From positions 150,037 to 214,036 of the forward strand of contig JAXDML010000010.1 of NCBI GenBank assembly GCA_034666125.1: a DNA stretch of 64,000 nucleotides, read 5' to 3'. The notes under the pieces were generated by a model. That model did not search any database. It had not been told where the DNA came from and saw only the letters and a list, made by a program, of their open reading frames with translations. Below are positions 20,260-51,116 of this stretch, piece after piece. Source of the stretch: Candidatus Parcubacteria bacterium. Its GTDB lineage: Bacteria; Patescibacteriota; Minisyncoccia; Phycocordibacterales; Phycocordibacteraceae. Numbering within the stretch: the first letter of the stretch is position 1; each line of letters begins with the position of its first letter. The position numbers and the translations under genes are program-made.

Positions 20260-20334
20260 GGCCTCATCGTCTAACGGTTAGGACAGATCCCTCTCACGGA
20301 TCAAATCGGGGTTCGATTCCCCGTGAGGTCACCA
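20260..20334 (+). tRNA. tRNA-Glu (anticodon CTC)
   Basis: Manual cloverleaf: acceptor GGCCTCA/TGAGGTC with one G-U; D-arm GTCT/GGAC; anticodon stem GATCC/GGATC with loop CTCTCAC (U33, CTC, A37); T-arm CGGGG-TTCGATT-CCCCG; encoded CCA. Confidence 0.8.
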
Positions 20335-37305: not shown

Positions 37306-37345
37306 TCCGAGAGCAGAGAAAGGGAAGAGGAGAAAGCAGGATAAC

Positions 37346-37372
37346 GCAAAAACGCCCCGAGGGGCGTTTTTG
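37346..37372 (+). terminator. Rho-independent terminator after the LOG gene
   Basis: AAAAACGCCCC-gag-GGGCGTTTTTGC. Confidence 0.7.
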
Positions 37373-37624
37373 CTGATAGCCGGTTGATGTCTCATCCCGA
37401 TCGCGCCGGAGAGGGTTTACCGCATCTCTCCCGAAGGTTCGATGCAGGACCGGACTCCAACACTCGCTTACAAGACCCGGTTCTCAATCGATAGGCTGCT
37501 TTTGGCCGAAGCCTCGAACAGTTATCTACCGACCCTGCCCGAGGCCGAAGCCAAGGGCTAAGTTCGAGTATCGCGCCTGCCGCAAAACCCGGCAACTGTG
37601 GATACTGTTTATAAGGTGGGGACA

Positions 37625-37690
37625 AAAAATATAATAGGGAAAAGCCGTTTCTTCAACGCGGCTTGATATCCCAGGTTTGAAGAAGCGGCT
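37625..37690 (-). terminator. Long hairpin terminator downstream of the minus-strand gene 37692..37922
   Basis: AGCCGTTTCTTCAA...TTGAAGAAGCGGCT: a 13-bp stem with one mismatch. On the minus strand it is followed by TTTTCCCTATTATATTTTTTG. Confidence 0.5.
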
Positions 37691-37691
37691 T

Positions 37692-37922
37692 TCAACTCAG
37701 CCCGGGGATGTGCAGGTCCCCCTCCACGAAGAGCCAGAAAATGAGCCCGGCGACGACGACGATCAGCGATGTCTCGGGCCATGGCAACCCTATCCAATGG
37801 CAGATCAGCGCGATGAGGGCCAGAAGGATTAGTCCCCAGATGGTCGGGCCTAGACTGTTACCCCTCAACATGATGATCAGCGTCCAGATTGCGCACAACG
37901 CAAAGGGCAGGTACTGGGTCAC
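37692..37922 (-). CDS. Small membrane protein (2 TM)
   Basis: 76 aa, hydrophobic. Confidence 0.35.
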   Translation of the reverse strand: MTQYLPFALCAIWTLIIMLRGNSLGPTIWGLILLALIALICHWIGLPWPETSLIVVVAGLIFWLFVEGDLHIPGLS

Positions 37923-38118
37923 GGTGACCTCCTTTCGTTTCAGTACCCTATGACTGTACGACTTACAAAGTAGAGAGTCAATAGAGAAGAGAATCGTATC
38001 AAAAGGAAAAAACTATCACATTCAACAGGGAGGCAAAGAAGACGGATGGCCGTTTTCCTTACAATGGCGACACGTGACCATAGGCATGTCGAGTGGCGGG
38101 GAAAGGCCCGAACCGTAT

Positions 38119-38292
38119 TTATATCTGAGGCGGAGTCTTCTTCTTGCTCTTCACTACGCTGACGATGCCGATAATTACCACTACGAGTCCGAGCAACTGC
38201 GCTCCGGGACTATCATCGATTCCGCCGTATACGAACATGAATGCTCCGAAAGCTATCGCGAGAATGGAACATAGCAACCTTCCTTTATTCAT
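38119..38292 (-). CDS. Small membrane protein (57 aa, 2 TM), not in the supplied ORF track
   Basis: Manual translation: MNKGRLLCSILAIAFGAFMFVYGGIDDSPGAQLLGLVVVIIGIVSVVKSKKKTPPQI. Confidence 0.3.
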   Translation of the reverse strand: MNKGRLLCSILAIAFGAFMFVYGGIDDSPGAQLLGLVVVIIGIVSVVKSKKKTPPQI

Positions 38293-38433
38293 ATAAAGAT
38301 CCTACCAAATGGGGAAATAAAAGAAAAAGGGCCCGGTATTTACTCCGGGACAGGGAAGTATACAAAAGGAAAAGGCCATCTGGGGGGAGACGACCGATTC
38401 CTTTGGTCCTCTCCCGGCTGATGGCCTTGGGCG

Positions 38434-38676
38434 TCAGTCCTCCTTGGTCGACGCCGCCGCTTCGAGCCGCTGCGCCACGTGCTCGATGTAGAGCAGGATG
38501 GCGCAGAGCATGAAGCCCAGTGTGATGACGACGAGCACCGCACCCCCGCCGATCTTGATGAAGCTCTGGTTCGGCGACGCCAGGACGATGGTGGCGAAGA
38601 AGGCGAAGATCAGCGCCATGACGACGTAGGTCGCGCTATCTTTGGCACCCCTGGCAATTCTTTCCGACTTGGACAT
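38434..38676 (-). CDS. Small membrane protein (2 TM)
   Basis: 80 aa, with an N-terminal charged segment then two TM helices. Confidence 0.4.
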   Translation of the reverse strand: MSKSERIARGAKDSATYVVMALIFAFFATIVLASPNQSFIKIGGGAVLVVITLGFMLCAILLYIEHVAQRLEAAASTKED

Positions 38677-38773
38677 CTTTCTCTCCTTGAAACATCAGTG
38701 GATTCATAGGCAGATTGGCACATATAGCCTACTTTTGTCAATCCAGCAGGGAAGTCAGATCTATACTGGAGGG

Positions 38774-38947
38774 ATGGAGAGAAAATGCGATGGGTGCGGA
38801 AATGAGATGCGTAGGATCGGTTCTTTTGCTCGAACAAAACGAGAAGGAGAGCGCTCATTCAAGAGCGACGGCTCGGTGCAATACCAGTGTATCAACGAAG
38901 TTTGCTCTGAGTACGAGAAAGTAGTGACGATTCAGCCGGGGGAGTAA
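38774..38947 (+). CDS. Small zinc-ribbon protein
   Basis: MERKCDGCGNEM...CINEVCSEYEK: two CxxC pairs. It sits at the beginning of the low-GC island. Confidence 0.35.
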   Translation: MERKCDGCGNEMRRIGSFARTKREGERSFKSDGSVQYQCINEVCSEYEKVVTIQPGE

Positions 38948-39517
38948 CCGGGTTGCGCGAAGTGGGGTTAATTCTTTGTTTCTAGAAGAGGGCATAGACT
39001 TGGACGACTCAAAGAAGTCTTGAGGAAAACTTGAGAACCTCTTCTGTAGGGTAGGGGAGTCCCCGGCACTTAGATCGGGGACGTGAGTAACTGCAGATTA
39101 CCGCTATGACGAAGGTAAAAGCGTGGCATTCGGCCAGGGAGACTGACCGTCAGGTATACCACGACAACGATGCGTGCACAGAAGGGAACAACATTGAAGA
39201 GAAGTACCGCCGGGAAGGTACTGACAATCGTCCTCAATGTGACCACTGTAGACGCCTCAGTTAAGGGTTTGTAGCGGAGTCTGCCCGGACGTAGCATCCC
39301 TGATACTTCTTCGGGAGGTCTGGGTGATCGCTCCTCTGGCACTCCCCGTGCAACCAGAACCATCGTCCCGTCTTGTCTTCGTCGGCAGCCGGGACGATGG
39401 TCTTTTGTATTACTGAGAGCTCGTAGTGAAGTCCGTCGTGTATGTAGGTGTCATCCTCTTCGGCCTCCGTCTTAGCCGCGCAGTAGATTTGACCGTTTTT
39501 TCGTATCCGTAGAGCCA

Positions 39518-39541
39518 TAGGGTAGGGAAGTCAGGTATAAT
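39518..39541 (+). promoter_or_regulatory. Island promoter motif copy 1: TAGGGTAGGGAAG-N5-TATAAT, followed by an ORF-free structured region
   Basis: Direct read. Nothing codes for >1 kb downstream. Confidence 0.45.
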
Positions 39542-39762
39542 GGGGGTGTAAGGTCAAGTCGAGCAAAGTTTAGTAAAGTCGAGTTAAGCAGATGAACTAT
39601 GGGCCTCGTGCCCTGCCCTCGCTTGCGAGGAAAAAGAGACCTTAGACCTGGGAACCTAGATCAGTAACATGGCTCCGCGCTCCAAAAGTCCACGCGCGTG
39701 GCAGGGAAGAGTTCGTTTGTCGTTACTGACCTAATCACTCCCAGGTCTAAACTCTATTTAAG

Positions 39763-39844
39763 TACAACGCACAATATCTGGATCAAATATTTCTGTCTTT
39801 TGTCAAGGCTTTGGGGCTCATTATTGAAAAGTGGGGAGACCCTT
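39763..39844 (+). repeat. 82-bp direct repeat, copy A (partner at 42953..43035)
   Basis: ACAACGCACAATATCTGGATCAAATATTTCTGTCTTTTGTCAAGGCTTTGGGGCTCATTATTGAAAAGTGGGGAGACCCTTA. Differs from copy B by 1 substitution and 1 indel. Confidence 0.9.
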
Positions 39845-40109
39845 AGAACGATCTAGGGGAGGCTCGGCAAGAAGAGAAATATGTTGTAGTTTGGACGCGA
39901 AAATCGTCCACAAGTTGTCCACTTAGGGTCGCGCTTGCGTCAAAATAGCCTCGGGTTAGGATACTTGGAGGAGAGTGGTTACCTTCCTTTTCCACTCCTC
40001 TGAAACGGTCAGTCCGGCCTTTTTATCAGACAACTACTAGCTCGCGGGCTCTAAATCCCAGAAAGGGGTTATTTTTCGTCCTTGTGCGTTCAGAACTTTG
40101 AAAACTTGA

Positions 40110-40214
40110 GTATTGAAGTGTGCCCCGACCGGGAATCGAACCCGGATCATTTCCTGAGAGAGGGAACGCCCTTTCGGGTGGAGTTTTCTAGACTCTTGCT
40201 CTATCCATTGAGCT
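40110..40214 (-). tRNA. tRNA-like gene with a ~34-nt insertion between anticodon stem and T-arm (apparent anticodon AGA); possible intron-containing or degenerate tRNA
   Basis: On the minus strand: perfect 7-bp acceptor (GCCCCGA/TCGGGGC), canonical D-arm (GCTC-AATGGATA-GAGC), anticodon stem-loop AGAGT-CTAGAAA-ACTCC, and a perfect T-arm (CCGGG-TTCGATT-CCCGG). A 34-nt segment with two hairpins (CCC-GAAA-GGG and TTCC...GGAA) sits where the 4-5 nt variable loop should be. Confidence 0.45.
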
Positions 40215-40909
40215 ATCGGGGCACGCTTCAGTACTCAAGATGCTTATGAGATGGGCAGTAGGTCGAAACCTTTTCGGCACACTGCCCAGCCCGTAAGGAC
40301 TGGGTAAATCTCTGGCGAGATTTAGGAAAGGGATCGGGTATTACCTGGTCCTTTTTCCGTTATCATTTCGCTCGCGGATGGTAGTGTCGGGGAACTTGTC
40401 GTTCACCCATTCACGGACATACCTTCCGGTCTTGGCGCTGCGATAAGAGTAGGGAATAAGCCTAGTCGTTAGTCGCGTCTAAACACCCGCATTGTCACTG
40501 CGGGGCCACTTTTCTCGGGAGACCGACCTCCGTCGCCTGCCGCTACGTATCGGCGGGGTATAGTGAGAAACGACACTTGTATCCGATACAAATAGAACCC
40601 ATCCCGACATCTGGCGTAGGCGCTCTCCCTTTCGGGTATCACGCCATACTGGCGAGTGGTCTCTTGAAACCTACGCCAGATGTCGAAACAGGTTCTCTGT
40701 TTCGGGAGAGCATATGAGGGGGACCAACCCCTGTTTATGAAAGTACCGCCCAGCGATTGAGCGTAGCTTTAGTATAACCGAACCGCGCCAAGCTCGTCTT
40801 GGGGATAGGGGTCGCTCCGAAACAGTCCGGCTATAAGGCAAGGGCAAATTGAGCGCTCCTTCTTGGTCCAGGTATTGTGCGATACAGCGATATAAACCGA
40901 GAAGGGAAG

Positions 40910-41125
40910 TTAACCTTTCAGTTTCTTCAGAGCGGCCTTCATGATTTTCTTACGTCCTTCACTCGGGCTGATCTCACGTGCCGCTTCGAAAAGGGCTTCT
41001 TTAGAGGCTTTCTTGGTCGCTTCCGCGAGCTTCGCCAGTTGCTTCACCGCGAAGTCAACCTCCCACTTCTGCTTAAAGGCTATAAGGTTGCGGTCTTCTT
41101 TCACTTTCTTTGGGTCGTCGGCCAT
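40910..41125 (-). CDS. Small basic lysine-rich protein (module 1)
   Basis: 71 aa, MADDPKKVKEDRNLIAFKQKW.. Preceded on its strand by the conserved CAGAGTCCGTATTTGGC motif and TATACT immediately before the ATG. Confidence 0.4.
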   Translation of the reverse strand: MADDPKKVKEDRNLIAFKQKWEVDFAVKQLAKLAEATKKASKEALFEAAREISPSEGRKKIMKAALKKLKG

Positions 41126-41142
41126 AAGTATAGAGTTACTAA

Positions 41143-41177
41143 TACCCCTTAACCCTATCAGAGTCCGTATTTGGCGG
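41143..41177. repeat. Island repeat family 2, copy 1 (CTAYCAGAGTCCGTATTTGGC-GGGGAGGG)
   Basis: Direct read. Partner at 44046..44080. Confidence 0.8.
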
Positions 41178-41189
41178 GGGAGGGTAGTC

Positions 41190-41567
41190 CTACTTTCCCT
41201 GAAGCTTCTTGAGCTCTTTAGTGAGCTTTTCTATCTGTTTCAGGAGCTCGTCGATTCGCTTCTGGTTCTTAGAGACGGCGGGACCGTTCGCCTTACACTC
41301 GCCCCCTTTGGTTAGGTAGTAGCCTGCGTTGCAACTGAACTTACAAGTGCTTTTGGCGGTTATGAGAACGGTCGCGTTCTTGGGAGCACTCTTCGTACAG
41401 GCTTTGAGGGCCTTGTTCTCGCAAGATCTGAGCTCGATCTTCTGACTCGCGGTCGGATTCGGTCCGAACGAAGTACGCATCGATGCGCAGCTGGAAGTGT
41501 TAAATGCCGCGTGTGCAGGCACCGACAAAAGAAATACAGCAATTAGCCCTATAAGGGTCTTTTTCAT
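41190..41567 (-). CDS. Secreted Cys-rich protein with C-terminal coiled-coil (paralog of 44659..45027)
   Basis: Signal peptide MKKTLIGLIAVFLLSVPAHAA, 10 Cys, and a C-terminal KRIDELLKQIEKLTKELKKLQGK. Confidence 0.5.
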   Translation of the reverse strand: MKKTLIGLIAVFLLSVPAHAAFNTSSCASMRTSFGPNPTASQKIELRSCENKALKACTKSAPKNATVLITAKSTCKFSCNAGYYLTKGGECKANGPAVSKNQKRIDELLKQIEKLTKELKKLQGK

Positions 41568-41736
41568 AGTGGAAGGTTTAAGTGTCTAAACGGTGCACCG
41601 CCCGAGGGTATCCCGGAAACCTTCCACGGAAACCGGGACCTGAACTCAGCCGGTGCATTGGTGGAAGGTTATATGTGGCCCTCTAGGGTACTGAACCTCA
41701 GTATACAACGGCTCCTTTTGAGGAAACAACGGGTCG

Positions 41737-41760
41737 TGGGGTAGGGGAGGCCTTATACTT
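41737..41760 (+). promoter_or_regulatory. Island promoter motif copy 2: TGGGGTAGGGGAG-N5-TATACT, 5 nt before the ATG at 41766
   Basis: Direct read. Confidence 0.45.
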
Positions 41761-41765
41761 TGGGG

Positions 41766-42614
41766 ATGGTCGATTTCCTATATAACTGGCAGACCCTGCT
41801 GGGCTCTTTGCTGGGAGCAGGCGTCCCATTGTCTTTACTGCTCGTCGGTAGGTTTTATTTTCAGAGACGGGATCACTTACGATCTCTGCATAAATTTGTG
41901 CTCCTTGCGAGCAATAACCTGATTGAGATAGATAGAACCGTTAGGGAGTTCAGGGACATTCGTATCGAGAAGCTCCTCTCAGACCTGGCGCGGGACCTGG
42001 AGGCGAACGAACCAAAATTCGTGGTGCCAATGGCGTATTTTCCACTTCAATCAGTCTTACGTTTACCAGACGACCTAATTAATCAGTCCACTGAAAGTGG
42101 GTATGTTGACACATGGGGACTCGAAGTTCTCTCGAAGTCCCGCGATCTTGAGAAGATAATGGACGACCTCCAGAGACAGTTCGAAGCGACTCTGGCTATG
42201 AATAAGGAATTAACTTTCTTGCTGTCGAATAAAATTGACGAAAAGGATAGAGAAGCCGCCCTAAGGCATTCGAGAGGCCTTATTTCCAGTCTGCGCCAAC
42301 AAATTACAGATTACGCAATCGTTCTCGAAAGAGACTTCTTTGGAAAGAACGTGCCTATCTATCTAAAGAGTCTCGCCACAACGTTGGCGGTCATAGATGA
42401 ATACAACCGAATTGGTTATATGTCTTGGAAATGGAAGTTCCGGATAGGCTTTAAGTGCTACAGAAATAAGGAATCGTATTTGCATGCAAAGGCCAACATC
42501 ATGAAAAAGATCGATCTTTACCTAAAAGAGAAAGTAGACGCAAAAATTGCCAGTACATTAGAACTGCTTACGCAGAGTCAATCGACATCTGTAGTGGTCC
42601 GTCAGGAGAGCTGA
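41766..42614 (+). CDS. Hypothetical protein with N-terminal TM helix
   Basis: The ORF as called starts at TTG 41760; first ATG at 41766 (MVDFLYNWQTLLGSLLGAGVPLSLLLVG..). Helical, with no family recognised. Confidence 0.5.
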   Translation: MVDFLYNWQTLLGSLLGAGVPLSLLLVGRFYFQRRDHLRSLHKFVLLASNNLIEIDRTVREFRDIRIEKLLSDLARDLEANEPKFVVPMAYFPLQSVLRLPDDLINQSTESGYVDTWGLEVLSKSRDLEKIMDDLQRQFEATLAMNKELTFLLSNKIDEKDREAALRHSRGLISSLRQQITDYAIVLERDFFGKNVPIYLKSLATTLAVIDEYNRIGYMSWKWKFRIGFKCYRNKESYLHAKANIMKKIDLYLKEKVDAKIASTLELLTQSQSTSVVVRQES

Positions 42615-42952
42615 TAGTCCAAATAGTGCTCGGGTAATGTCTGACCAAAAGGGCAGGGGAGTCAGCCTTAGACACCCCTAAAGGCTGATCTTCTTCTTTT
42701 TTGTTCATAGGGTAGGGAAGTCAGGGTGTGAGCCCTGAAAAGCCAGCCTGATTTTGCTACTATTCTCGTGGGGTAGGGAGACAAGTCCCTACCCCAGTCA
42801 GTTACGGCCATAGAGGGGACCCAGATTCATGGACATCCTCGAACTGATCCTTATCTACCTGATTCTTAAAAAGATCCTGTAGAGAAGGGAGTACGGACCG
42901 CGTTACAAGCGCGGTTTCTGCTTTCGGGCTGGCTTTTGAAGGTTCAAATCAA

Positions 42953-43035
42953 ACAACGCACAATATCTGGAACAAATATTTCTGTCTTTTGTCAAGGCTT
43001 TGGGGCTCATTATTGAAAAGTGGGGAAGACCCTTA
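42953..43035 (+). repeat. 83-bp direct repeat, copy B; overlaps the 5' end of ORF 43000..43530
   Basis: Near-identical to 39763..39844. Confidence 0.9.
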
Positions 43036-43530
43036 AAGCAATTCGAAGCAGCCTCGCCGAAAACAGAAGTGTGTTCTAGTTTGACGCATCTTCAGCGAAG
43101 ATTTAGGCTTAATGTTACAAACTTGAAGAACACCAAGAAAAAGAAGGTCCGGACAAGACCACATACCCGTACTGATGTGATTTCAGACACGGAAAGGCTG
43201 GAGATCCACTACTGGACCTTAGGAAGTAGGGTGACTAGATTTGCTGTTTGCTACTGCTGCGAGATCGACGGGGAATGGGTGAGTATCACTTGGTGTGATG
43301 ACGCGCATCTCGAAAAAGGAAGGTATGTCGGCAAAGGCCGAAAAGGGCATTGCCACAGTTTCTCGGCCCAGGGTGGCAAACTTGTAGAAAACGAGTATCT
43401 TTTAGGTCTGGGGACTCCGGCTGAGCATCTGACTGAGGTTCTGAATAATTTCAAGAAGAATCACGAGCAAATACGGGCTCAGTATATGAAGGCTGTGGAG
43501 AAAGCCGCTAGACAGGCAAAGAATAGGTAA
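43000..43530 (+). CDS. Hypothetical Cys/His-rich protein (start uncertain; ORF as called begins at TTG inside the repeat)
   Basis: VCYCCEIDGEWVSITWCDDAHLEKGRYVGKGRKGHCHSF suggests metal binding. The lysine-rich N-terminus may not be translated. Confidence 0.4.
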   Translation: MGLIIEKWGRPLKQFEAASPKTEVCSSLTHLQRRFRLNVTNLKNTKKKKVRTRPHTRTDVISDTERLEIHYWTLGSRVTRFAVCYCCEIDGEWVSITWCDDAHLEKGRYVGKGRKGHCHSFSAQGGKLVENEYLLGLGTPAEHLTEVLNNFKKNHEQIRAQYMKAVEKAARQAKNR

Positions 43531-43540
43531 GAATATAGAT

Positions 43541-43801
43541 ATGGCTGCTACTAACAAAAGGATCGTAAGAAAGAATCTGACCTGCTCAGTGGCTTTTAAC
43601 GAATACTTAATCAAGAACTCTGGTAAGAGAATCCTGCCTAATGGAGCAACCGTAGTTTTTAGTGATACGAGAGACGCCGCCTTTTCGGCTGCGAATAGAT
43701 TACTTTGTAATAGCATAGTCAGAAGTGGGGAAAGTTGCTACATAGCAGAAAAAAGCGGCAGGTCTTGGAATGTAGATAGAATATCTCCGGTCAGCAGATA
43801 G
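43541..43801 (+). CDS. Hypothetical protein
   Basis: 86 aa with no motifs. Confidence 0.3.
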   Translation: MAATNKRIVRKNLTCSVAFNEYLIKNSGKRILPNGATVVFSDTRDAAFSAANRLLCNSIVRSGESCYIAEKSGRSWNVDRISPVSR

Positions 43802-43860
43802 AGGTAGTTGTCTAAACAGAAAAGCCGCCCTACGGCGGTTCTTTTCTTGGAGGAGGGGAG

Positions 43861-44013
43861 TTACTTCTTCCCGCGAGGCTTGTTGGCTGCGTTATCAAGA
43901 GCAACTGCCGCTAACGTCTTCACTTGGGCACTTGTTGGCTTGATCGCACCACTGAGAACCTTCGAAGCCAGGGTCGCATTCTTCGAGGAGGTCACGTCAT
44001 CTTTCTTTGCCAT
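43861..44013 (-). CDS. Small basic lysine-rich protein (module 2; 50 aa, not in ORF track)
   Basis: Manual translation MAKKDDVTSSKNATLASKVLSGAIKPTSAQVKTLAAVALDNAANKPRGKK. Preceded by repeat family 2, copy 2. Confidence 0.3.
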   Translation of the reverse strand: MAKKDDVTSSKNATLASKVLSGAIKPTSAQVKTLAAVALDNAANKPRGKK

Positions 44014-44045
44014 AACTGTAGTGGTTAACTAATAATCTCCTATAA

Positions 44046-44080
44046 CTCTACCAGAGTCCGTATTTGGCCAGGGGAGGGGA
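44046..44080. repeat. Island repeat family 2, copy 2
   Basis: CTACCAGAGTCCGTATTTGGCCAGGGGAGGGG. Confidence 0.8.
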
Positions 44081-44089
44081 TAACGGGAG

Positions 44090-44674
44090 TTAGTCGTCTC
44101 CAATCCTCCCGGCAGTTAATCTGCTTAACTCTGCCTTCCATTTCGCCCGGGCAGCTGCATTGGCTGATACTGTGACCGATATATCGCTTGGTATCGGGTC
44201 GGCATCCATCTTCTGTATTTCGGGGTTCGAGATCCTCTCGCTAAGAGGCGAGTAACTGCTCAGTAACTCGTTTGTGCCGAGGTTCTGTATGAAGTAACTT
44301 GTCTCAGTAATCCAACTGCGCTCCCCAGTACTCATCACTTGGAACGAGTCTTCTGTAGTGCTGTATCCGCCCACACACTCTTTGAGTTCAGGACTGAACC
44401 CGACAAGGAAACTACTCATGTCCATACGAACGACCATTCTCTCTGGGTACCCGTTTGTTATGGCTTTCTGGCTATAGAAGTCCTGGATCCCAGCCGTACG
44501 CTCACGGAATGCGTCTAGTTTCTGAGAACAGTCTTTCGAGTCGGCACTGCCTAACGTCTTTGGAGTCGAACTGCCAATGGCGTAAACCGTAATTGCAAAA
44601 ATCAAGAGGACGACACACGCGCCCAGGGCGAATCCCTCAAAGGAGATTTTCCTCATAGCTAGAAGGAGCCACAA
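44090..44674 (-). CDS. Membrane-anchored/secreted hypothetical protein
   Basis: Probable start at MRKISFEGFALGACVVLLIFAITVYA (signal anchor). No family. Confidence 0.45.
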   Translation of the reverse strand: MWLLLAMRKISFEGFALGACVVLLIFAITVYAIGSSTPKTLGSADSKDCSQKLDAFRERTAGIQDFYSQKAITNGYPERMVVRMDMSSFLVGFSPELKECVGGYSTTEDSFQVMSTGERSWITETSYFIQNLGTNELLSSYSPLSERISNPEIQKMDADPIPSDISVTVSANAAARAKWKAELSRLTAGRIGDD

Positions 44675-45027
44675 GCCTGTACCATACCGTTAGATAGGTA
44701 GCTGCATACGGACGTCTGGGTCCCCAATTGCTTGTCGATCTCCTGTATCTCTTTCGCCGCAGCGTTCCTCTGCTGTGCGGTTACCTTCATATTCCGGTTC
44801 AGTTTGACGAGCTCCGCTTTGCGCCGCTCAAGCTTCTCAGTCTTAGCCGAGGTCTTAACTGGGGTCTTTTTGTCGATCTGAACGACCGACCTTCCTTCAA
44901 GAGCAGAGACACGTTTCTCAAGGGCCAGGAGCCTTGAAGCGAGAGAACCGATAGAGTCAGGGGCTGCGTACGTGAAGGCGGGCACGATCAGGACGCCCAG
45001 AACGAAGCCCGCAAGGGTCTTTTTCAT
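44659..45027 (-). CDS. Secreted coiled-coil protein with C-terminal Cys pair (paralog of 41190..41567, domains in the opposite order)
   Basis: Start at MKKTLAGFVLGVLIVPAFTYA (signal peptide), coiled-coil LASRLLALEKRVSALEGR.., and C-terminal ..VCSYLSNGMVQACGSF. The upstream extension of the ORF as called is rejected. Confidence 0.45.
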   Translation of the reverse strand: MKKTLAGFVLGVLIVPAFTYAAPDSIGSLASRLLALEKRVSALEGRSVVQIDKKTPVKTSAKTEKLERRKAELVKLNRNMKVTAQQRNAAAKEIQEIDKQLGTQTSVCSYLSNGMVQACGSF

Positions 45028-45260
45028 AGGGAAGTTTGCGTGAGGTTTCGTGGAATAAACGCACCGCCCAAGGATGGAATCTCCGAGCAAACTTCCCAGA
45101 AAGCCGGAGACCCCAAGGAACTTGGGCGGTGCGGTCGGGAAGTTTGCTGCTATGGGTGGTGTCACTACCACGATACAACAGGGCAGACCCCTTGTAAATA
45201 CTAGCCTGGGGACACATTTCACGTCCCTAAAGTTTTTCTAAAGGCGTTATCAACTGGAAA

Positions 45261-45284
45261 TAGGGCAGGGAAGTGTGGTATAAT
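45261..45284 (+). promoter_or_regulatory. Island promoter motif copy 3: TAGGGCAGGGAAG-N5-TATAAT, 8 nt before the ATG at 45293
   Basis: Direct read. Confidence 0.45.
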
Positions 45285-45292
45285 GCAGAAGC

Positions 45293-45538
45293 ATGGACTT
45301 GAATAAACAAGAGAAAACCATGGCTGACGTGATACTCGTGTCCTACAATCCAGCGTTTTTCATGCTTGGAATGCAGCACGGGGAATCAGTCTCGGTGTAC
45401 ACCACTACCCCAGAAGGGGCTAAGGCGTTCGCCGAGAACCTTACGAAGCGTGTGGCTGAGTACGAATCCACGATACGTAAGATTGATTCCTCGGGTCTAC
45501 AGTTAGGGACCGTGTCACCGATCCAGCCTCGCAAATAA
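45293..45538 (+). CDS. Hypothetical protein
   Basis: 81 aa with no motifs. Confidence 0.35.
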   Translation: MDLNKQEKTMADVILVSYNPAFFMLGMQHGESVSVYTTTPEGAKAFAENLTKRVAEYESTIRKIDSSGLQLGTVSPIQPRK

Positions 45539-45640
45539 AGCTTTTTGTTCCTGTTACTTTAGAGAGTCCTTCTTTCATATTTCTACATCGCACAATATCT
45601 GTTTTGCGTAATACAAATACGTAAAGCACGCAAAGGCAGA

Positions 45641-45826
45641 TTAGGACTTTGCCCTTGGAGAGAGACTCTCAAGTAGTTTAGTGACTTGACTTACCATCTG
45701 TTCAACGACTGAACGCTTCATATGGAAGCTTGTAACGCGTCCTTGTTTGTTATGAAGATGAAGAAGTATCTCATCTTCAGCCTCCCTAACGTCCATTTTG
45801 ATATCTATGATAGGCAAGTTTTCCAT
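45641..45826 (-). CDS. Hypothetical small protein
   Basis: 61 aa. Confidence 0.25.
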   Translation of the reverse strand: MENLPIIDIKMDVREAEDEILLHLHNKQGRVTSFHMKRSVVEQMVSQVTKLLESLSPRAKS

Positions 45827-45995
45827 AGATCCATTATACTCGTTTATCCGAGATATGGCTCACTTATTGGTTTCTTTAGTACCAAGACCTACTCAACTTA
45901 TATGAAGAGCTGTGCGGGTCTTGAAGACTGCCAATAGGTGTTGGACTTCCGGTGAAGAATGAGACTAGTTTCTGAAGATTCCAAGGCTCCAGCTA

Positions 45996-46607
45996 TCAAG
46001 TAAGGGGTTGCGACTCCCCTACCTTCAAATTTGGAAGGAATGTGTTGAAAATAGAAAGCCTAAAACTATCTGAGAAATGCTTCCATTCTTCCATTAAGGA
46101 TCGGAGAGTCTCGAAGCCCGCTTTTATAAGAAGCTGGTCTCTCTCGTCGTCAGGATTCTTGCCACCGTGAAAGAGGTTATTTCGTATTGAATGCCAGAAC
46201 TCAATCATATTTCTCCAGTCTTCCAGATTACGAATCCTTCCCTGTTGGTCACAAAAATGACTTTCCTGGTCCTGTACGTTCTGACAGTCACAATCCCAGT
46301 ACCAGATCGCATGAACATCGTCCGTATTTTTGTCGAGCTCGCCCAAGGGACGTTCATCCAGCTCATTTTTAATAGACTGCCAAGACTGCTGAAGATGGTT
46401 ATCCCTAGCAACTAAGTCAAGGTACATATTTCGCACCTCTGCATCGTATTTAAGAGCTCGAATTGCGCTTGAGTCTGTCACTCTGTTTGTAAACTTAATT
46501 CGCTTCAAATATGCAATAAATGCCAGGTACTCGAAAACATACTTTGAAAAGTAGTCCTCACTACCGGCCTGGGCGTGCCAACTTCTTATTAATTGTTCGA
46601 AGTCCAT
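45996..46607 (-). CDS. Hypothetical protein with HEPN-type Rx4H motif (candidate RNase), third gene of a compact 3-gene operon
   Basis: WHSIRNNLFHGGK contains R-N-x3-H, as in HEPN catalytic motifs. 203 aa, helical. Starts 9 nt after the stop of the 4-TM gene. Confidence 0.45.
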   Translation of the reverse strand: MDFEQLIRSWHAQAGSEDYFSKYVFEYLAFIAYLKRIKFTNRVTDSSAIRALKYDAEVRNMYLDLVARDNHLQQSWQSIKNELDERPLGELDKNTDDVHAIWYWDCDCQNVQDQESHFCDQQGRIRNLEDWRNMIEFWHSIRNNLFHGGKNPDDERDQLLIKAGFETLRSLMEEWKHFSDSFRLSIFNTFLPNLKVGESQPLT

Positions 46608-46616
46608 TAGCAGTCT

Positions 46617-47066
46617 CTACTTAATTGATAGGTTAAAGATTCTCCTTGTAATCCAAATACAGCGTCCAGTTTTTATAATAACTAAAAAAACAATGGCCAA
46701 GAACATGAACATTTCTACCTTCGGAGATGCGTCTATGTTTAGTACCTCTCTTAGGATCAGAATAATAACTCCAAAGGATATCCAAAAAAGTGCGTTTACA
46801 ATTATATCCATTACAGTTCGAAACGACTTTGTCTTTTTGAAATAAACTAATTTTTCACTGTCGTTAAAAGAGAAAATTATAGCCATGAAAGCCATAACAA
46901 ACCCCAAGAGTCCAATCAGTGACTCAGTCATATTAAGTAAAAACTCGTTGCTTAACGAGGAAGACAAATTGAAACGGAATAAGAAATACGTTATTCCACC
47001 CGCGCATAGAAAAGTGAGTAAGGTATCTATAGGCTGAAAGAATTTTTGATACCAATTCTTTAACAT
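46617..47066 (-). CDS. Small 4-TM membrane protein (middle gene of the 3-gene operon)
   Basis: 149 aa with four hydrophobic helices. ~33% GC. Starts 3 nt after the stop of the upstream 306-aa gene. Confidence 0.55.
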   Translation of the reverse strand: MLKNWYQKFFQPIDTLLTFLCAGGITYFLFRFNLSSSLSNEFLLNMTESLIGLLGFVMAFMAIIFSFNDSEKLVYFKKTKSFRTVMDIIVNALFWISFGVIILILREVLNIDASPKVEMFMFLAIVFLVIIKTGRCIWITRRIFNLSIK

Positions 47067-47069
47067 ATT

Positions 47070-47990
47070 TTATTCACCTATAATACTTAGAAGATCGCCC
47101 CGCTTCTTTTTGTAGGCAGCGCAGATATTTTCGAACATATCTTTCGGGTCAACTTCTCGAGCGTTGTTTAATTTAGTAGTTCTAACTTCGTACACCATTT
47201 TGTCTTTGAGGAGGTCAAAGTCTTGAATTTTTTGTGTCTGAGAGTCCCAGGCTTTGATATTAAAACGATCAAATTGCTCACCGGGGTAGAAACGTCCCAC
47301 ATACCCCTTTAAGTTTTTAAGGAATGTCTTTCGTTCAGTGCCCTTAAGAATCGGCTTCCTGCCGTTCTTTTTTGGTCTTAGTACTAGTTCGATTTCTTCC
47401 AAATCTCCAAAGGAAGACGCAGTCCTGAGGGATGAATAAAGATTCGAGTCCAGATTTTTTATACTGTCGACGTGATTCTTATGTACCATTAGGGAGATTG
47501 ATGTAATATCTCCCATTCTACTAATTTGTCGGAGCGCGTCCTTATTAAATAGAATATTAAAGTATAAGAAAAGTGGATTCTTTACTCCAATATTTACGTT
47601 CTCCATCTTTTCGTTCAGATACTTAGCAAGTGTGCCAATGCGCGGTCCATAAAAGTTATATTCCATAGCTACGATGCCCTTCTCAGGGAAATACACAAAG
47701 TGTGTAGGTATGACCAGACCCTCGCTATCTTTAAGTTTTAGGGGATGAACTTTTGTGTCGTCAACCGACGCGACAGAAGGAAAGTCACTACCTCTCCATT
47801 CGTATAAACTTCCGTAAATTACCCCCTTGCCCGTGTCTTTTACGGTGCAGAATATCTTTCTGTCCCTCTCTCTTTCCCAGAAGATATCTTTTTGATCCAG
47901 TGAACTTAATTCTTTAACAACGTCAACAAAAGTGCCGTTCATAACAGCCGATCGGTAGAAGTAGACCTGTCGCACAACAGTTTCCTTCAT
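47070..47990 (-). CDS. Hypothetical 306-aa cytoplasmic protein (first gene of the 3-gene operon), unknown function
   Basis: No TM and no confidently recognisable catalytic motif. A weak GS..DD nucleotidyltransferase-like pattern (YGSLYEWRGSDFPSVASVDD) does not fit the canonical spacing. Lowest GC in the window. Confidence 0.5.
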   Translation of the reverse strand: MKETVVRQVYFYRSAVMNGTFVDVVKELSSLDQKDIFWERERDRKIFCTVKDTGKGVIYGSLYEWRGSDFPSVASVDDTKVHPLKLKDSEGLVIPTHFVYFPEKGIVAMEYNFYGPRIGTLAKYLNEKMENVNIGVKNPLFLYFNILFNKDALRQISRMGDITSISLMVHKNHVDSIKNLDSNLYSSLRTASSFGDLEEIELVLRPKKNGRKPILKGTERKTFLKNLKGYVGRFYPGEQFDRFNIKAWDSQTQKIQDFDLLKDKMVYEVRTTKLNNAREVDPKDMFENICAAYKKKRGDLLSIIGE

Positions 47991-48315
47991 GAGGCCTTCA
48001 TTTTACCACCAGGGTGAATCTTGTACAGACGGACCCAATGTCAAGCCTTTAAAAGGCTTGTGAGCTCCTTTCGCTTTGATAGAAACTTTGCTTCTATATT
48101 TCCGTGACTGATTTCAAAACACGTTAGGATCTACTTGACCTAAACTAGGCTGTTTGGCCTGGCGTGGTCTAAAAACGCGACAAACATAGAAAACCCGTCA
48201 TCAGGGCGTTTGTCGCGTTATAGGGGTAAACTCCTATAGGGGCTTCGGCCCTACTGGTGGCGGGTTTTGTGTTTGCCCACCTCCCCGCCCCGTCTTACTT
48301 CCCTAGTAAACGAAC

Positions 48316-48798
48316 ATGGCACAAGAAACTACTGTTACTGAAGACACTAAGGTCTGTCCGAAATGTGCGACAAATATCCCCAAGCAAGCAATACGCTGCC
48401 CTAACTGTAGGAGCAAGATAGGAACCTCGAGACTTGGAAAGCTTCTTGCGATCTTCTTCGGGCTCTTCATTGTCATGATGGTCATCTCAGTTCAAAGTGC
48501 CACCCCTACCCCACGAGTCCCTGGACCTGAGACGGAACCGGGCTGGGCTGACTCTGCCGCAGGAAAACTTTGTTCCAAGCACCCTGACTGGCAACCGGAA
48601 GAATGCGTTAAGGTTGCTGGAAAGAAGATCTGGATCGGTATGGACTACGATATGCTCGTATATCAATACGGAAAGCCAGATTCTATAAACCCTTCTAACT
48701 ATGGAGGCGGAACAAGATACCAATACTGTTGGCATGATTACTCCCCTTCTTGCTTTTATGACGAGAATGGGGATAACAAGATAGACGCTTATAACTAA
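48316..48798 (+). CDS. Zinc-ribbon / TM / extracytoplasmic domain protein
   Basis: CPKC...CPNC zinc ribbon, one TM (LLAIFFGLFIVMMVISV), and a C-terminal Cys-containing domain. Confidence 0.5.
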   Translation: MAQETTVTEDTKVCPKCATNIPKQAIRCPNCRSKIGTSRLGKLLAIFFGLFIVMMVISVQSATPTPRVPGPETEPGWADSAAGKLCSKHPDWQPEECVKVAGKKIWIGMDYDMLVYQYGKPDSINPSNYGGGTRYQYCWHDYSPSCFYDENGDNKIDAYN

Positions 48799-48886
48799 GC
48801 TGTTTATAATTATTGGAACAAAGACGCGTGCGTAACGAGTCAATGGAAGTCTTTGGTGAGGAAATTCCCTTATCAGTTAGGTTCCA

Positions 48887-49258
48887 TTGACTATGTCAAC
48901 ATCCATAAAAACGAAGACATACGAGTGTCTTACAAGTGTATTTAGCTCCGAATATATAGAGATTGCGAAAGATCTCTATATACGAATGGTGCGTGACTAT
49001 AGACCAAGTACCTCGGGAGAACTTGCTCTAATTGAGATGGCAGTACGATCTCTCGTACGGTCTATGCATTTATCGAAAGAAATTAGCGGTCAGATAGATT
49101 GGGAAGGCTGCTCGAAGACACGCACGATCGTTTCTTATATAGACCTATTAAGTAAGCAAGTCGATCGAGAAGATAGGAAGTTTATTCAGCTTATAAACGA
49201 GCTCAAGAACTTTACCCCTAGTGTAATTCGACTTAAGGGTACTGTTCTCCCTACTTAA
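48887..49258 (+). CDS. Hypothetical protein
   Basis: 123 aa with no motifs. Confidence 0.35.
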   Translation: MTMSTSIKTKTYECLTSVFSSEYIEIAKDLYIRMVRDYRPSTSGELALIEMAVRSLVRSMHLSKEISGQIDWEGCSKTRTIVSYIDLLSKQVDREDRKFIQLINELKNFTPSVIRLKGTVLPT

Positions 49259-49368
49259 AATCGTACTAATTCGTTCCGAATAAGGTGAGGTTGATATACT
49301 GGACTCGGTAGGCTATAAGTGGAATAAGGCAGGGACAAAATGTGTTCTAAAATAGACTGATTCTCGAC

Positions 49369-50004
49369 TCACTTGTTTATCTCAAGGAAGATTGTCGCAA
49401 GCAAGTCCATCATGGTGGCAGCCGTAGGTTTAGACTCGGGAGTTTCGGATGCACACGCATTATCTGCCCACAGTCCCTCCTTATTCACTCGTGCTGTTGT
49501 CTCTGCCTCTTTAAACTGAGCCTGGTATTTGTACGGTAAGTTGTATGTATATTCCTGGGCAAACCCTTCCTGGATCATCTTTAAATTAAGGTTAGATCCG
49601 TTTTCAAGAAAAATATATCCAAGTCTCCTATTGTATTTGTCGTAGGTACCCTGGGATGGGTCTGTCTCGACATACACTTTTGCGTCAGTAAGGAGCGCCT
49701 TGGCTCGATTAGAGGCCTCGCGACCAAAACACTCGACCGCTTGAGTTGGATGAACTGTTTCAGGAGTATCTATACCAATGAGTCGGAATGTCTGAACTTC
49801 GTTATCTATGCGAATTTTTACCGTATCTCCATCTACGACGTCAACAACAGAGTAGAGACTGCTAGGTGCTTGGAAGCCTTCCTCAACAGATTGAGTTTGT
49901 TTCGCTACTTCCCCTCCCGATCTATCTGTAAGAAATAGTAAGCCCCCACCAACAAAAAGGATGCCAATGCAACATGCTGTTAATTTTTTGAGAGCCGCAC
50001 TCAT
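49369..50004 (-). CDS. Secreted thermonuclease (staphylococcal nuclease/SNase family)
   Basis: Signal anchor; SNase motifs VVDGDTVKI, FRLIGIDTPE, RRLGYIF, GLW. Confidence 0.75.
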   Translation of the reverse strand: MSAALKKLTACCIGILFVGGGLLFLTDRSGGEVAKQTQSVEEGFQAPSSLYSVVDVVDGDTVKIRIDNEVQTFRLIGIDTPETVHPTQAVECFGREASNRAKALLTDAKVYVETDPSQGTYDKYNRRLGYIFLENGSNLNLKMIQEGFAQEYTYNLPYKYQAQFKEAETTARVNKEGLWADNACASETPESKPTAATMMDLLATIFLEINK

Positions 50005-50019
50005 TCCTAGAGTATATCT

Positions 50020-51015
50020 CTAGGGCGTGTGATTCATGGGTAACCGAAATTCACCCATATCCTCCCCTATCTGATACTGAGTGGCAGAAATAACCTTTAA
50101 GTCCCCCAAATCGAGCATTTTGTGATGGTTAGGACATAGCACGAGCATATTTGATGGGAGGTCTGCACCAGGAAGTCGTTTGGCAATTGGCACAATGTGG
50201 GCTACTTCAGAATAAAGGTTTCCGCTTCTCTGTCTGAAGGTAAATCCACAAATTTGGCATTCGTTTTTATACTTCTCCTTCATCCGACGAACGAGAGATA
50301 CGTTGCGCTTAATAACGGTCACCTTCCTGGCTACAGATTCAGGCACGTCATCCGCATGACGTTGCTGCCATTCGAGTAGCAGTGAATCCTCTTCCTTATC
50401 TCGTGTAAGCGCGTCGACCTCCGCGAGTTCACTTGCAGTGAGGTCTTCCTTCCCACTAATACTATCGAGCAAAGCCACGTCTTTTGCCTTAAGTCCAGGA
50501 GAGTATGCGTCGAAGAATGAATCTAGACTTCCGTAAGTTGCATAGATCCTGTCCAAAGCACCTTCACGTAGACTTACGAAACCCTGAACAACCATCTTGT
50601 CGTCATAGGCTCCTAATTCGCGGATAATCTCAAGAGGAAGCTGAATTGGCCGAAGTTCGTCGAGAAAGAATAGGTATTCCCAGGTTTCTTCTTTTTGCGG
50701 GATATTGCCCCACAGAGCTCTCGCGATCTCGGCGCTCTGCTTTTTCAATATACATTTACCCGTATACACAAAAACTCCTTTTGCGTAAAAAAGAACACTG
50801 TCACCCGGTTGCATTTGATCCCAATAGAAGCGCCTCCCTTCTCCACTTCCCCATATATAAAGCTGGTCTTGTACACCCAGAGCCTGCTCTTCCTCGGTCG
50901 AGAGATATTGATGTATATGGTCACGTGGGTAACCGCTGGCAAGCGTTGCAATAAAGTTTGCCTGCGATGTTTCGTTGCTCCGAGGAGCCAGGTATATCTT
51001 TGGACGTTCAGCCAT
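50020..51015 (-). CDS. HNH endonuclease with N-terminal PUA-like (EVE/ASCH-type) domain, candidate modification-dependent nuclease
   Basis: Start at MAERPKIY. HNH: CQICGFTF..SEVAHIVPIA..N.LVLCPNHHKMLD. N-terminal GDSVLFYAKGVFVYTGK-type PUA-like pattern (fold assignment is inference). Confidence 0.65.
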   Translation of the reverse strand: MAERPKIYLAPRSNETSQANFIATLASGYPRDHIHQYLSTEEEQALGVQDQLYIWGSGEGRRFYWDQMQPGDSVLFYAKGVFVYTGKCILKKQSAEIARALWGNIPQKEETWEYLFFLDELRPIQLPLEIIRELGAYDDKMVVQGFVSLREGALDRIYATYGSLDSFFDAYSPGLKAKDVALLDSISGKEDLTASELAEVDALTRDKEEDSLLLEWQQRHADDVPESVARKVTVIKRNVSLVRRMKEKYKNECQICGFTFRQRSGNLYSEVAHIVPIAKRLPGADLPSNMLVLCPNHHKMLDLGDLKVISATQYQIGEDMGEFRLPMNHTP

Positions 51016-51116
51016 ATTTCCTTGCACAAAGGCTACGCCTGAACCGTAGTATGTCAATCGCCGCTGATTTGAGACAATCTTAAAAACAAAAAGATCACAT
51101 AGCGCGGACACCAACT

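Follow-up and report, generated by a model that had tools for sequence, protein, structure and literature searches.

Introduction

The locus considered here, a stretch of DNA free of open reading frames (ORFs) with an atypical tRNA-like gene in its middle, lies in the genome of a Candidatus Parcubacteria bacterium and can be compared with several described systems. One example is the class II tRNAs, among which bacterial serine identity is set by G73, G2:C71, a class-II D arm and a single long variable arm; tRNAs carried by mobile elements and phages are another. Further examples are the precursor stems that RNase III cuts, mainly in rRNA operons and also around some tRNAs, and the large ornate RNAs of the GOLLD, ROOL and HEARO type. 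Finally, the YrlA-type Y RNAs mimic tRNA and possess a long terminal stem, a GNCGAAN0-1G motif and a Ro60-binding stem, with their gene located beside rsr (PMC4201824).

The stretch under study spans positions 39518-40909 (ORF-free part 39519-40909, ~1.39 kb) of the 64-kb window, i.e., of the whole stretch of DNA that was analyzed and whose numbering is used throughout. In a preliminary description, it had been read as a hairpin-dense region in which a clean promoter would drive one or more large structured noncoding RNAs (ncRNAs). Every sequence quoted there is found at or near the position assigned to it, and no ORF longer than 58 amino acids (aa) occurs on either strand of 39519-40909, where the JGI gene caller predicts none either. 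The tRNA-like gene announced for the middle of the stretch is also present, but on the minus strand (40121-40222). The proposal that a structured RNA is encoded here is borne out by this module, and may extend to its flank, but fails for a single large RNA. The explanation favored here, to which about an even chance is given, is a composite noncoding spacer in which two units converge, instead of a single large RNA.

A tRNA-like gene enclosed by a clamp helix

The whole window was scanned with cmscan against Rfam at gathering scores, and 39000-41400 was scanned again at E<=10. The former returned three matches only, namely a LOOT RNA (48137-48252), a tRNA-Glu (20260) and a tRNA on the minus strand at 40121-40222, and the permissive scan added three chance-level matches only. 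No match to GOLLD, ROOL, HEARO, group I or II introns, RNase P or tmRNA, models raised in the preliminary description, was obtained in either scan. The match at 40121-40222 marks a real RNA gene of 102 nt, an atypical tRNA or tRNA-like gene whose decoding role is doubtful. It scores 56.7 bits against RF00005 (gathering score 29) and covers model positions 1-71; ARAGORN makes no call at this site.

The gene folds into a canonical cloverleaf with stems of 7, 4, 5 and 5 bp, a 7-nt anticodon loop, U33 and a purine at position 37. Its acceptor stem is GCCCCGA/UCGGGGC, followed by the discriminator A73; its D arm, GCUC-AAUGGAUA-GAGC, is of class-I type, with a 4-bp stem and an 8-nt loop; its anticodon arm, AGAGU-CUAGAAA-ACUCC, presents the serine anticodon AGA and contains the only non-standard pair, A27.C43; and its T arm reads CCGGG-UUCGAUU-CCCGG. 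No CCA is encoded. The variable region is where the gene departs from known sizes (canonically 4-5 nt, or one arm of up to ~21 nt): it holds an insert of ~31-34 nt (a 31-nt insertion relative to the model) that forms two hairpins, CCC-GAAA-GGG and one of 21 nt. The cloverleaf with these two extra hairpins is both the minimum free energy (MFE) and the centroid structure.

Additionally, the gene is enclosed by a helix, referred to below as the clamp, in which 17 nt of leader (40223-40239, minus strand) pair with the discriminator and the 16 nt of trailer that follow it (40105-40120, minus strand), after which comes UUUU. Of its 17 positions, 15 are paired and two are C.A mismatches, and the helix runs on directly from the acceptor stem; the 149-nt segment 40098-40246, folded on the minus strand, reaches z -7.0 relative to shuffled sequences. 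No clamp helix surrounds the housekeeping tRNA-Glu at 20260 (z -0.1).

Regarding aminoacylation identity, A73, C2:G71, the 4-bp D stem and the 8-nt D loop all differ from the bacterial serine set, whereas in an ordinary Parcubacteria tRNA-Ser(CGA), found in locus L029, position 73 is G, pair 2:71 is G:C and the variable region forms one 14-nt arm. Codon usage was compared between the low-GC island that contains the stretch and its host in a small sample, in which UCU makes up 19% of the serine codons of island ORFs vs 7% of those of six host ORFs, and AGU 25% vs 0%. Together with the observation that the anticodons readable in this gene and its relatives (AGA, UGA and GCU) are all serine anticodons, this excess is as expected of a supplementary tRNA on foreign DNA. 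The idea that the tRNA marks an integration (att) site was rejected, given that the window holds no second copy of the tRNA 3' half.

Related loci and the link to IS1595 transposases

Relatives of the gene were reached through homologues of an 85-aa protein encoded at 39261-39518, beside the stretch, which led to loci L004, L005 and L007, and through a transposase 67% identical to that of L005, which led to L033. The closest relative is that of L005/L007, a 104-nt match to RF00005 (62.7 bits, anticodon UGA) with perfect stems, a two-hairpin variable insert of similar length and, again, no ARAGORN call. It is flanked by a 24-nt inverted repeat whose sequence is unlike that of the window clamp. 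In L004, a 73-nt match (47.7 bits) has an anticodon read as GCU and a weak anticodon stem; a 14-bp extension encloses the gene, and a hairpin with 33-nt arms follows the clamped module. L033 carries a 72-nt match (43.4 bits) in which a perfect 16-bp helix covers the acceptor stem and its extension. The clamp is thus present in four loci, with arm sequences that are mutually unrelated, while the anticodon arm and the variable region vary (total lengths of 72-104 nt), which suggests that the acceptor/T/D shape and the clamp weigh more than decoding.

In each of the three related loci (L005/L007, L004 and L033), an IS1595-family transposase gene precedes the tRNA-like gene on the same strand, at a distance of 100-450 nt. 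The resulting arrays, each with a leader/trailer helix of 14-24 bp, occupy L005 2788-4009, L033 2934-4115 and L004 7196-8183. L005 and L033 have in common a three-way-junction element of ~110 nt that ends in a U-run, is located between transposase and tRNA-like gene and shows 8 compensatory pairs between the two loci. The array of transposase, junction element and tRNA-like gene may represent an RNA component of IS1595-family elements. In two more distant IS1595 loci, L029 and L034, no tRNA-like gene was found just downstream of the transposase gene. As for the window itself, tblastn with the L004 and L005 transposases gave no match, nor did tblastx, so that neither a DDE transposase ORF (PF12762) nor a remnant of one was seen; a covariance model of the L005/L033 junction element matched only ordinary terminators there.

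A pattern combining the D arm and the anticodon loop found no match in viral contigs. Among genome and metagenome contigs other than the source sample, the same pattern returned chance matches and one unrelated class-I tRNA. The latter, from a soil metagenome (L025, 540-625, plus strand), is a class-I-shaped tRNA with the serine anticodon CGA and a short variable loop, so that its body and anticodon are mismatched when compared with the usual serine type.

It is conceivable, although unlikely, that the clamped tRNA-like gene, its two-hairpin insert and its structured flank belong to an undescribed Parcubacteria ncRNA family tied to mobile elements. Such a family might consist of transposase-associated or defense-related RNAs rather than decoding tRNAs, the copy in the window being an orphan that has outlived its transposase.

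The left part of the stretch as a decayed duplicate

The left 600 nt of the stretch (39518-40100) are a partial duplicate of 42706-43095, in the same island. Each copy begins with a promoter-like box (see below), which is followed by unrelated sequence (248 nt in the first copy vs 247 nt in the second) and then by a shared block of about 140 nt on the plus strand, located at 39764-39905 in the first copy and at 42953-43095 in the second. The first 74 nt of this block are 99% identical, the whole ~137-140 nt are 86% identical, and the similarity ends there. The block contains the CGCACAATATCTG box (39768-39780, plus strand) and the start of an ORF, which in the second copy continues into the called DUF7718 ORF at 43000-43530. 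In the first copy, a 1-nt deletion stops the frame after 11 codons (39811-39846, LGLIIEKWGDP* vs LGLIIEKWGRPLKQ...). The left half is most likely the remnant of a dead cassette, perhaps still transcribed. Since the called TTG start of DUF7718 (43000) falls inside the duplicated noncoding block, its true start may lie further downstream. An alternative reading of the duplicate as the template and variable repeats of a diversity-generating retroelement was discarded: its mismatches do not fall specifically at adenines, and a reverse transcriptase was looked for in vain.

Just upstream of the block, both copies have a long closing inverted repeat (I6 in the first, I4 in the second). I6 corresponds to the nested long hairpin at 39633-39759, whose arms are 39633-39653 and 39739-39759 and whose inner helix joins 39661-39668 and 39722-39729. 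The nested helices named in the preliminary description, AGACCTGGGA (39644-39653) with TCCCAGGTCT (39739-39748) and TCAGTAAC (39661-39668) with GTTACTGA (39722-39729), are part of this hairpin, which also appears in the MFE folds. A 200-nt window on it reaches z ~-3, and folds of 224-256 nt only -1.5 to -2.6. Of the two box-to-box copies, only the second folds significantly better than shuffles (z -5.0). More generally, 39542-39765 and 39766-40120 fold at z -1.5 and -1.3, and sliding 200-nt windows from 39401 to 40200 range from z +1.7 to -3.0. Thus, the description of the region as hairpin-dense applies to ~40100-40800 only, since 39516-40100 behaves like shuffles (z -1.3 to -1.6) save for 39601-39800 (z ~-3). 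The GNRA- and UUCG-capped hairpins that had been pointed out are not in excess either: four with stems of at least 4 bp were counted, vs 1.8 +/- 1.4 in shuffles.

Towards the right end of the left part, a terminator scan detected a hairpin with a T-run (40054-40078, plus strand), which immediately precedes the tRNA-like gene at its 3' end and may function as a terminator. Further terminator-like sites were found at 40167 and 40325, likewise on the plus strand.

Beside these findings, the second copy has features of its own. Its box-to-box segment (42706-42960, plus strand) adopts a closed multi-branch fold and holds a 17-codon hydrophobic ORF (42829-42882, MDILELILIYLILKKIL), a AGAGGGGA Shine-Dalgarno-like sequence and a terminator-like hairpin, a layout that resembles that of type I toxin loci. 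Downstream, the adjacent genes for DUF7718 (176 aa) and DUF5647 (86 aa) (43000-43801, plus strand) may constitute a two-gene module in the style of toxin-antitoxin systems.

Repeated promoter-like boxes of the island

The G-rich, promoter-like box at 39518-39541 (plus strand) has the form TAGGGTAGGGAAGT-CAGG-TATAAT, its TATAAT occupying 39536-39541; the sequence TAGGGTAGGGAAGTCAGGTATAAT quoted in the preliminary description is indeed present at these positions. It is an instance of an island-specific repeat, given that TAGGGYAGGGRAGT has 7 matches in the window vs 0.81 expected, all of them between 39047 and 46026. A 20-nt version starting at 39516, CATAGGGTAGGGAAGTCAGG, is found again at 42706 with 100% identity, there without TATAAT. 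NNGG-TATAAT follows the copy at 39518 as well as that at 45261; in the latter (45261-45284, with the same GG-TATAAT ending), TATAAT and the ATG of an 81-aa called ORF are 8 nt apart, a spacing that suggests the promoter of a leaderless or short-leader mRNA. No site with -35 and -10 hexamers at a spacing of 16-18 nt, as expected for sigma-70, was detected in 38500-42000. In consequence, of the clean promoter originally proposed, TATAAT and the recurrence of the box within the island stand and the sigma-70 -35 element does not; a role as an island promoter-type box is plausible for 39518-39541, where promoter activity is predicted.

Two other copies have coding sequences nearby. One, at 41737-41768 (plus strand), is followed by a start codon ~10-15 nt further on. 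The other, at 39047, lies 45 nt upstream of a 52-aa Cys/His-rich ORF (…YHDNDACTEGNNIE…PQCDHC…; 39106-39264, plus strand), which overlaps by 4 nt the stop of the convergent 85-aa gene (39261-39518).

A second repeated box, CGCACAATAYCTG, has 4 matches in the window vs 0.12 expected, at 39768, 42957 and 45589 on the plus strand and at 40881 on the minus strand. The fourth copy (40869-40881, minus strand) heads the hairpin-dense stretch that precedes the tRNA-like gene; because each of the other three copies heads a unit, it may likewise mark the start of a minus-strand unit.

The hairpin-rich right part

From 40247 to 40905, the DNA is unique and hairpin-dense. When 40223-40905 is folded as one 683-nt sequence, its MFE corresponds to z -6.1 on each strand. 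A scan of 33-53 kb in sliding 200-nt windows gives its strongest signals over 40101-40400 (z of -10 and -8) and over 40501-40800 (z of -4.3 and -5.3); across ~40100-40800, the full series is -10, -8, -3.9, -4.3 and -5.3. The underlying structure is a chain of local hairpins, mainly perfect Watson-Crick, at 40253-40287, 40306-40323, 40486-40504, 40540-40556 and 40858-40905, in addition to the terminator-like hairpin at 40325-40358 (plus strand). Another one contains the perfect 16-bp stem that had been noted before (40605-40620 with 40670-40685), which widens to arms of 27 nt (40594-40620 with 40670-40696).

None of these hairpins is repeated elsewhere in the 64-kb window, and blastn against phage and plasmid collections, as well as comparison with the fetched related loci, found nothing similar to the right part. 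Judged by counts of G.U pairs, 40098-40600 slightly favors the plus strand and 40590-40700 the minus strand. Three readings of the right part are considered: a structured leader or ncRNA with the tRNA-like module at its end, a set of separate small RNAs or terminators, or DNA palindromes of mobile origin.

Two proposed convergent units and competing explanations

The arrangement favored here builds on the repeats, the duplicate, the tRNA-model match, the clamp, the excess folding, the lack of coding or known-RNA signals and the related loci; from these features we infer transcription, the strand of the hairpin-rich part, processing and function. The plus-strand unit would start at the box at 39518-39541, run through the long hairpin and the decayed duplicate of the DUF7718 regulatory region and first codons, and end at the terminator-like hairpins (40054-40078 and the others beyond). 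The minus-strand unit would start at the CGCACAATACCTG box (40881), proceed through a hairpin-rich leader of ~650 nt into the tRNA-like gene (40222-40121) and close with the leader/trailer helix, 17 positions continuous with the acceptor stem, followed by UUUU. The tRNA-like module would be made within a longer precursor, in which the clamp helix could act as a processing site, a terminator or both. Once released, the module could be an island-borne supplementary tRNA, an option that fits its serine anticodon AGA and the greater use of UCU in the island than in the host, or a non-decoding, tRNA-like structural module.

Several points weigh against this explanation. The promoter roles of both boxes are candidate roles, and the terminator scan returned no site on the minus strand. 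The two clamp mismatches, C.A on the strand of the tRNA, would be G.U pairs on the plus strand, and the segment 40098-40246 folds better on the plus strand (-77.5 vs -62.3 kcal/mol), so that its structure may be selected on the plus strand or at the DNA level; the clamp mismatches of L004 show the opposite strand pattern. Serine identity and decoding are doubtful because of A27.C43, A34, A73 and C2:G71, all unlike the tRNA-Ser of L029. For the gene in the window, the link to IS1595 is one of analogy, as no transposase remnant lies in the window. Additionally, all further copies of the locus are 100% identical to it and thus add no variation.

One large ornate ncRNA (GOLLD, ROOL or HEARO type), read from the 39518 box along the plus strand for 1.3 kb, would account for ORF-free island DNA that holds a tRNA-like gene, for the repeated box at its 5' end and for the slightly better fold of 40098-40600 on the plus strand, with its greater number of G.U pairs. 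It is nonetheless very improbable. The Rfam models of large RNAs stay empty even at E<=10 and there is currently no covariation support, the combination that the preliminary description itself had named as telling against a large RNA. The DNA just downstream of the box is the least structured of the stretch: these first 600 nt fold like shuffles and duplicate the start of a gene. The plus strand is moreover broken by the terminator-like sites at 40054, 40167 and 40325, which a single RNA would have to cross, and this RNA would be antisense to the tRNA-like gene, whose model matches the minus strand only. Nor do the MFE folds contain long-range pairs that join the two halves. Still less probable is a degraded or frameshifted protein-coding gene. 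Stop-free frames reach 99 aa (40472-40768, minus strand), and the DUF7718 ORF start survives as a remnant at 39811-39846, but the latter is part of a block of only ~140 nt. The ten longest stop-free pieces have no significant match in Pfam or PHROG (best PHROG E 0.034), the 99-aa frame found no convincing homologue in an exhaustive HMMER search of 1.84 billion representatives (a single weak match, E 9e-5, over 33 residues), and tblastx against the related loci gave nothing within the gap. As far as can be tested, the stretch is noncoding, in agreement with the preliminary description.

The two remaining explanations concern the right part. Less likely than the convergent units, although the more credible of the two, is that ~40100-40900 encodes a new structured ncRNA, ~650-800 nt long and read from the minus strand, whose 3' domain would be the clamped tRNA-like module, analogous to the layout of a small RNA plus a tRNA-like gene downstream of the IS1595 transposases in L005 and L033. 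This proposal draws on the strongest folding signal in the 20 kb scanned (z ~-6) and on the box at the head of the region, which heads other units as well; the related loci offer parallels in the junction element with its 8 compensatory pairs, which precedes the clamped gene in L005 and L033, and in the 33-nt-arm hairpin that follows it in L004. Against it, most stems belong to local hairpins with perfect Watson-Crick pairing, which fold as well on one strand as on the other, searches of the phage and plasmid collections and of the fetched loci found nothing similar, the L005/L033 covariance model matches only plain terminators in the window, and neither a promoter nor a minus-strand terminator is called. 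In the other explanation, the hairpins act at the DNA level, as palindromes left or used by mobile DNA (ends of a lost insertion sequence or miniature inverted-repeat transposable element, recombination sites or an origin), with the clamp representing terminal inverted repeats. The equal folding excess of the two strands, the perfect 16-bp stem without G.U pairs, the low-GC variable island and the proximity of clamped tRNA-like genes to IS1595 transposase genes elsewhere point in this direction, and covariation is expected of inverted repeats bound by a single protein as much as of RNA helices. This explanation is rather unlikely, given that the 64-kb window contains no transposase remnant and no second copy of any hairpin, that no target-site duplications were seen, and that in four loci clamp and acceptor stem adjoin exactly, as one uninterrupted helix, which argues for a relationship at the RNA level.

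The surrounding island

The stretch is located in a low-GC variable island (~37.3-51.1 kb) of the Candidatus Parcubacteria genome, whose existence is confirmed: GC content is ~0.60 outside 37-51 kb and drops to 0.39-0.52 inside. The ORFs of the island are largely of unknown function (Pfam, 19 island ORFs scanned). The small proteins on either side of the gap are annotated by NCBI as the hypothetical proteins QOE22_690 and QOE22_691; as these locus tags are consecutive, the NCBI record seems to annotate nothing between them. The predicted structure of the 85-aa neighbor is of low confidence (pLDDT 64.7), and a Foldseek search of this model against the PDB gave no match. In the contexts compared, the ORF-free stretch is not conserved beside homologues of either flanking small protein, and only the tRNA-like gene recurs near homologues of the 85-aa protein (L004 and L005).

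The locus was recovered again in the independent JGI contig L001 (11.1 kb), which is 100% identical to 37344-48451, and in two short contigs that are 100% identical to parts of it. L001 starts at 37344 and stops at 48451, inside the island, and these borders may reflect population variation at the island edges. A strong terminator follows a LOG-family gene at 37342-37380 (plus strand).

Other observations concern the remainder of the island. What looks like a defense-type cluster occupies its right end (46617-51114, minus strand). Its members are a 306-aa protein that weakly matches RexA and PDC-M67A, the 149-aa ORF after it, a protein with an SNase domain (PADLOC C3a212, E 4.6e-46) and an HNH protein that has a type IV restriction-like match. 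The LOOT RNA (RF03000, 70.2 bits, plus strand) immediately precedes the ORF of a zinc-ribbon membrane protein (48316-48798). Contig L008 holds another LOOT match (2005-2132, plus strand; 72.7 bits) and also encodes a homologue of a 71-aa island protein. Two intergenic regions with long imperfect hairpins, 48780-48920 and 45030-45170 (both plus strand), fold at z -4.4 and -2.6, respectively, as 141-nt segments, with 200-nt windows down to -6.8 and -5.3. A search with a 284-aa island protein found no relatives among viral contigs.

Comparison with known systems

The reading as a large ornate RNA is not supported by the Rfam and covariation tests that had been proposed for it, and the hairpin-rich flank is without detectable relatives. 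The stretch does resemble the settings of GOLLD, ROOL and HEARO in being ORF-free DNA of a mobile or variable region near a tRNA-like gene; it differs from these RNAs in having no model match, no long-range architecture and no homologues, and in that half of it is a decayed duplicate. An ORF-free, hairpin-rich stretch of an island therefore need not be a large ornate RNA.

The RNase III-cut precursor stems of rRNA and some tRNAs offer a parallel for the clamp, in which leader and trailer similarly form a long, near-perfect duplex around the mature RNA. Such stems belong mainly to rRNA operons, whereas the duplex described here surrounds a single tRNA-like gene in mobile-type DNA, and its cleavage is hypothetical.

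YrlA-type RNAs, which occur in bacteria and phages, share with the clamped gene a tRNA-like module in which T and D arms are joined to a long helix of the 5' and 3' ends. Four differences stand out: the GNCGAAN0-1G motif is absent from the arms of the window clamp; no Rfam Y-RNA match was reported for the window, although clan competition with tRNA could mask one; no Ro60/TROVE match was found by Pfam in the 19 island ORFs scanned; and the window gene keeps a full anticodon arm. Moreover, the long stem of YrlA is not known to extend from the acceptor stem, unlike the clamp.

A further likeness is to tRNAs proper. The gene matches the tRNA model over all 71 positions as a cloverleaf and, as in class II tRNAs, it has an extra structured variable region next to a 7-nt anticodon loop with U33, and a serine anticodon (AGA here, UGA in L005). 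Like the tRNAs of mobile elements, it sits in low-GC acquired DNA with a codon usage unlike that of the host. It departs from class II tRNAs in its variable region of 31-34 nt, which forms two hairpins instead of one arm (14 nt in the tRNA-Ser of L029), in its class-I-type D arm, A73 and C2:G71 in place of G73 and G2:C71, in the A.C mismatch of its anticodon stem and A34, and in its position within a leader/trailer clamp helix, all in a gene that ARAGORN misses. Given this miss and the consecutive NCBI tags on either side, genes of this kind may escape notice elsewhere in Candidate Phyla Radiation genomes. The clamped tRNA-like genes beside IS1595 transposases in three loci hint at an RNA component of those elements, and if the gene described here is functional, it widens the range of bacterial tRNA and tRNA-mimic shapes by a two-hairpin variable region and an enclosing leader/trailer clamp.

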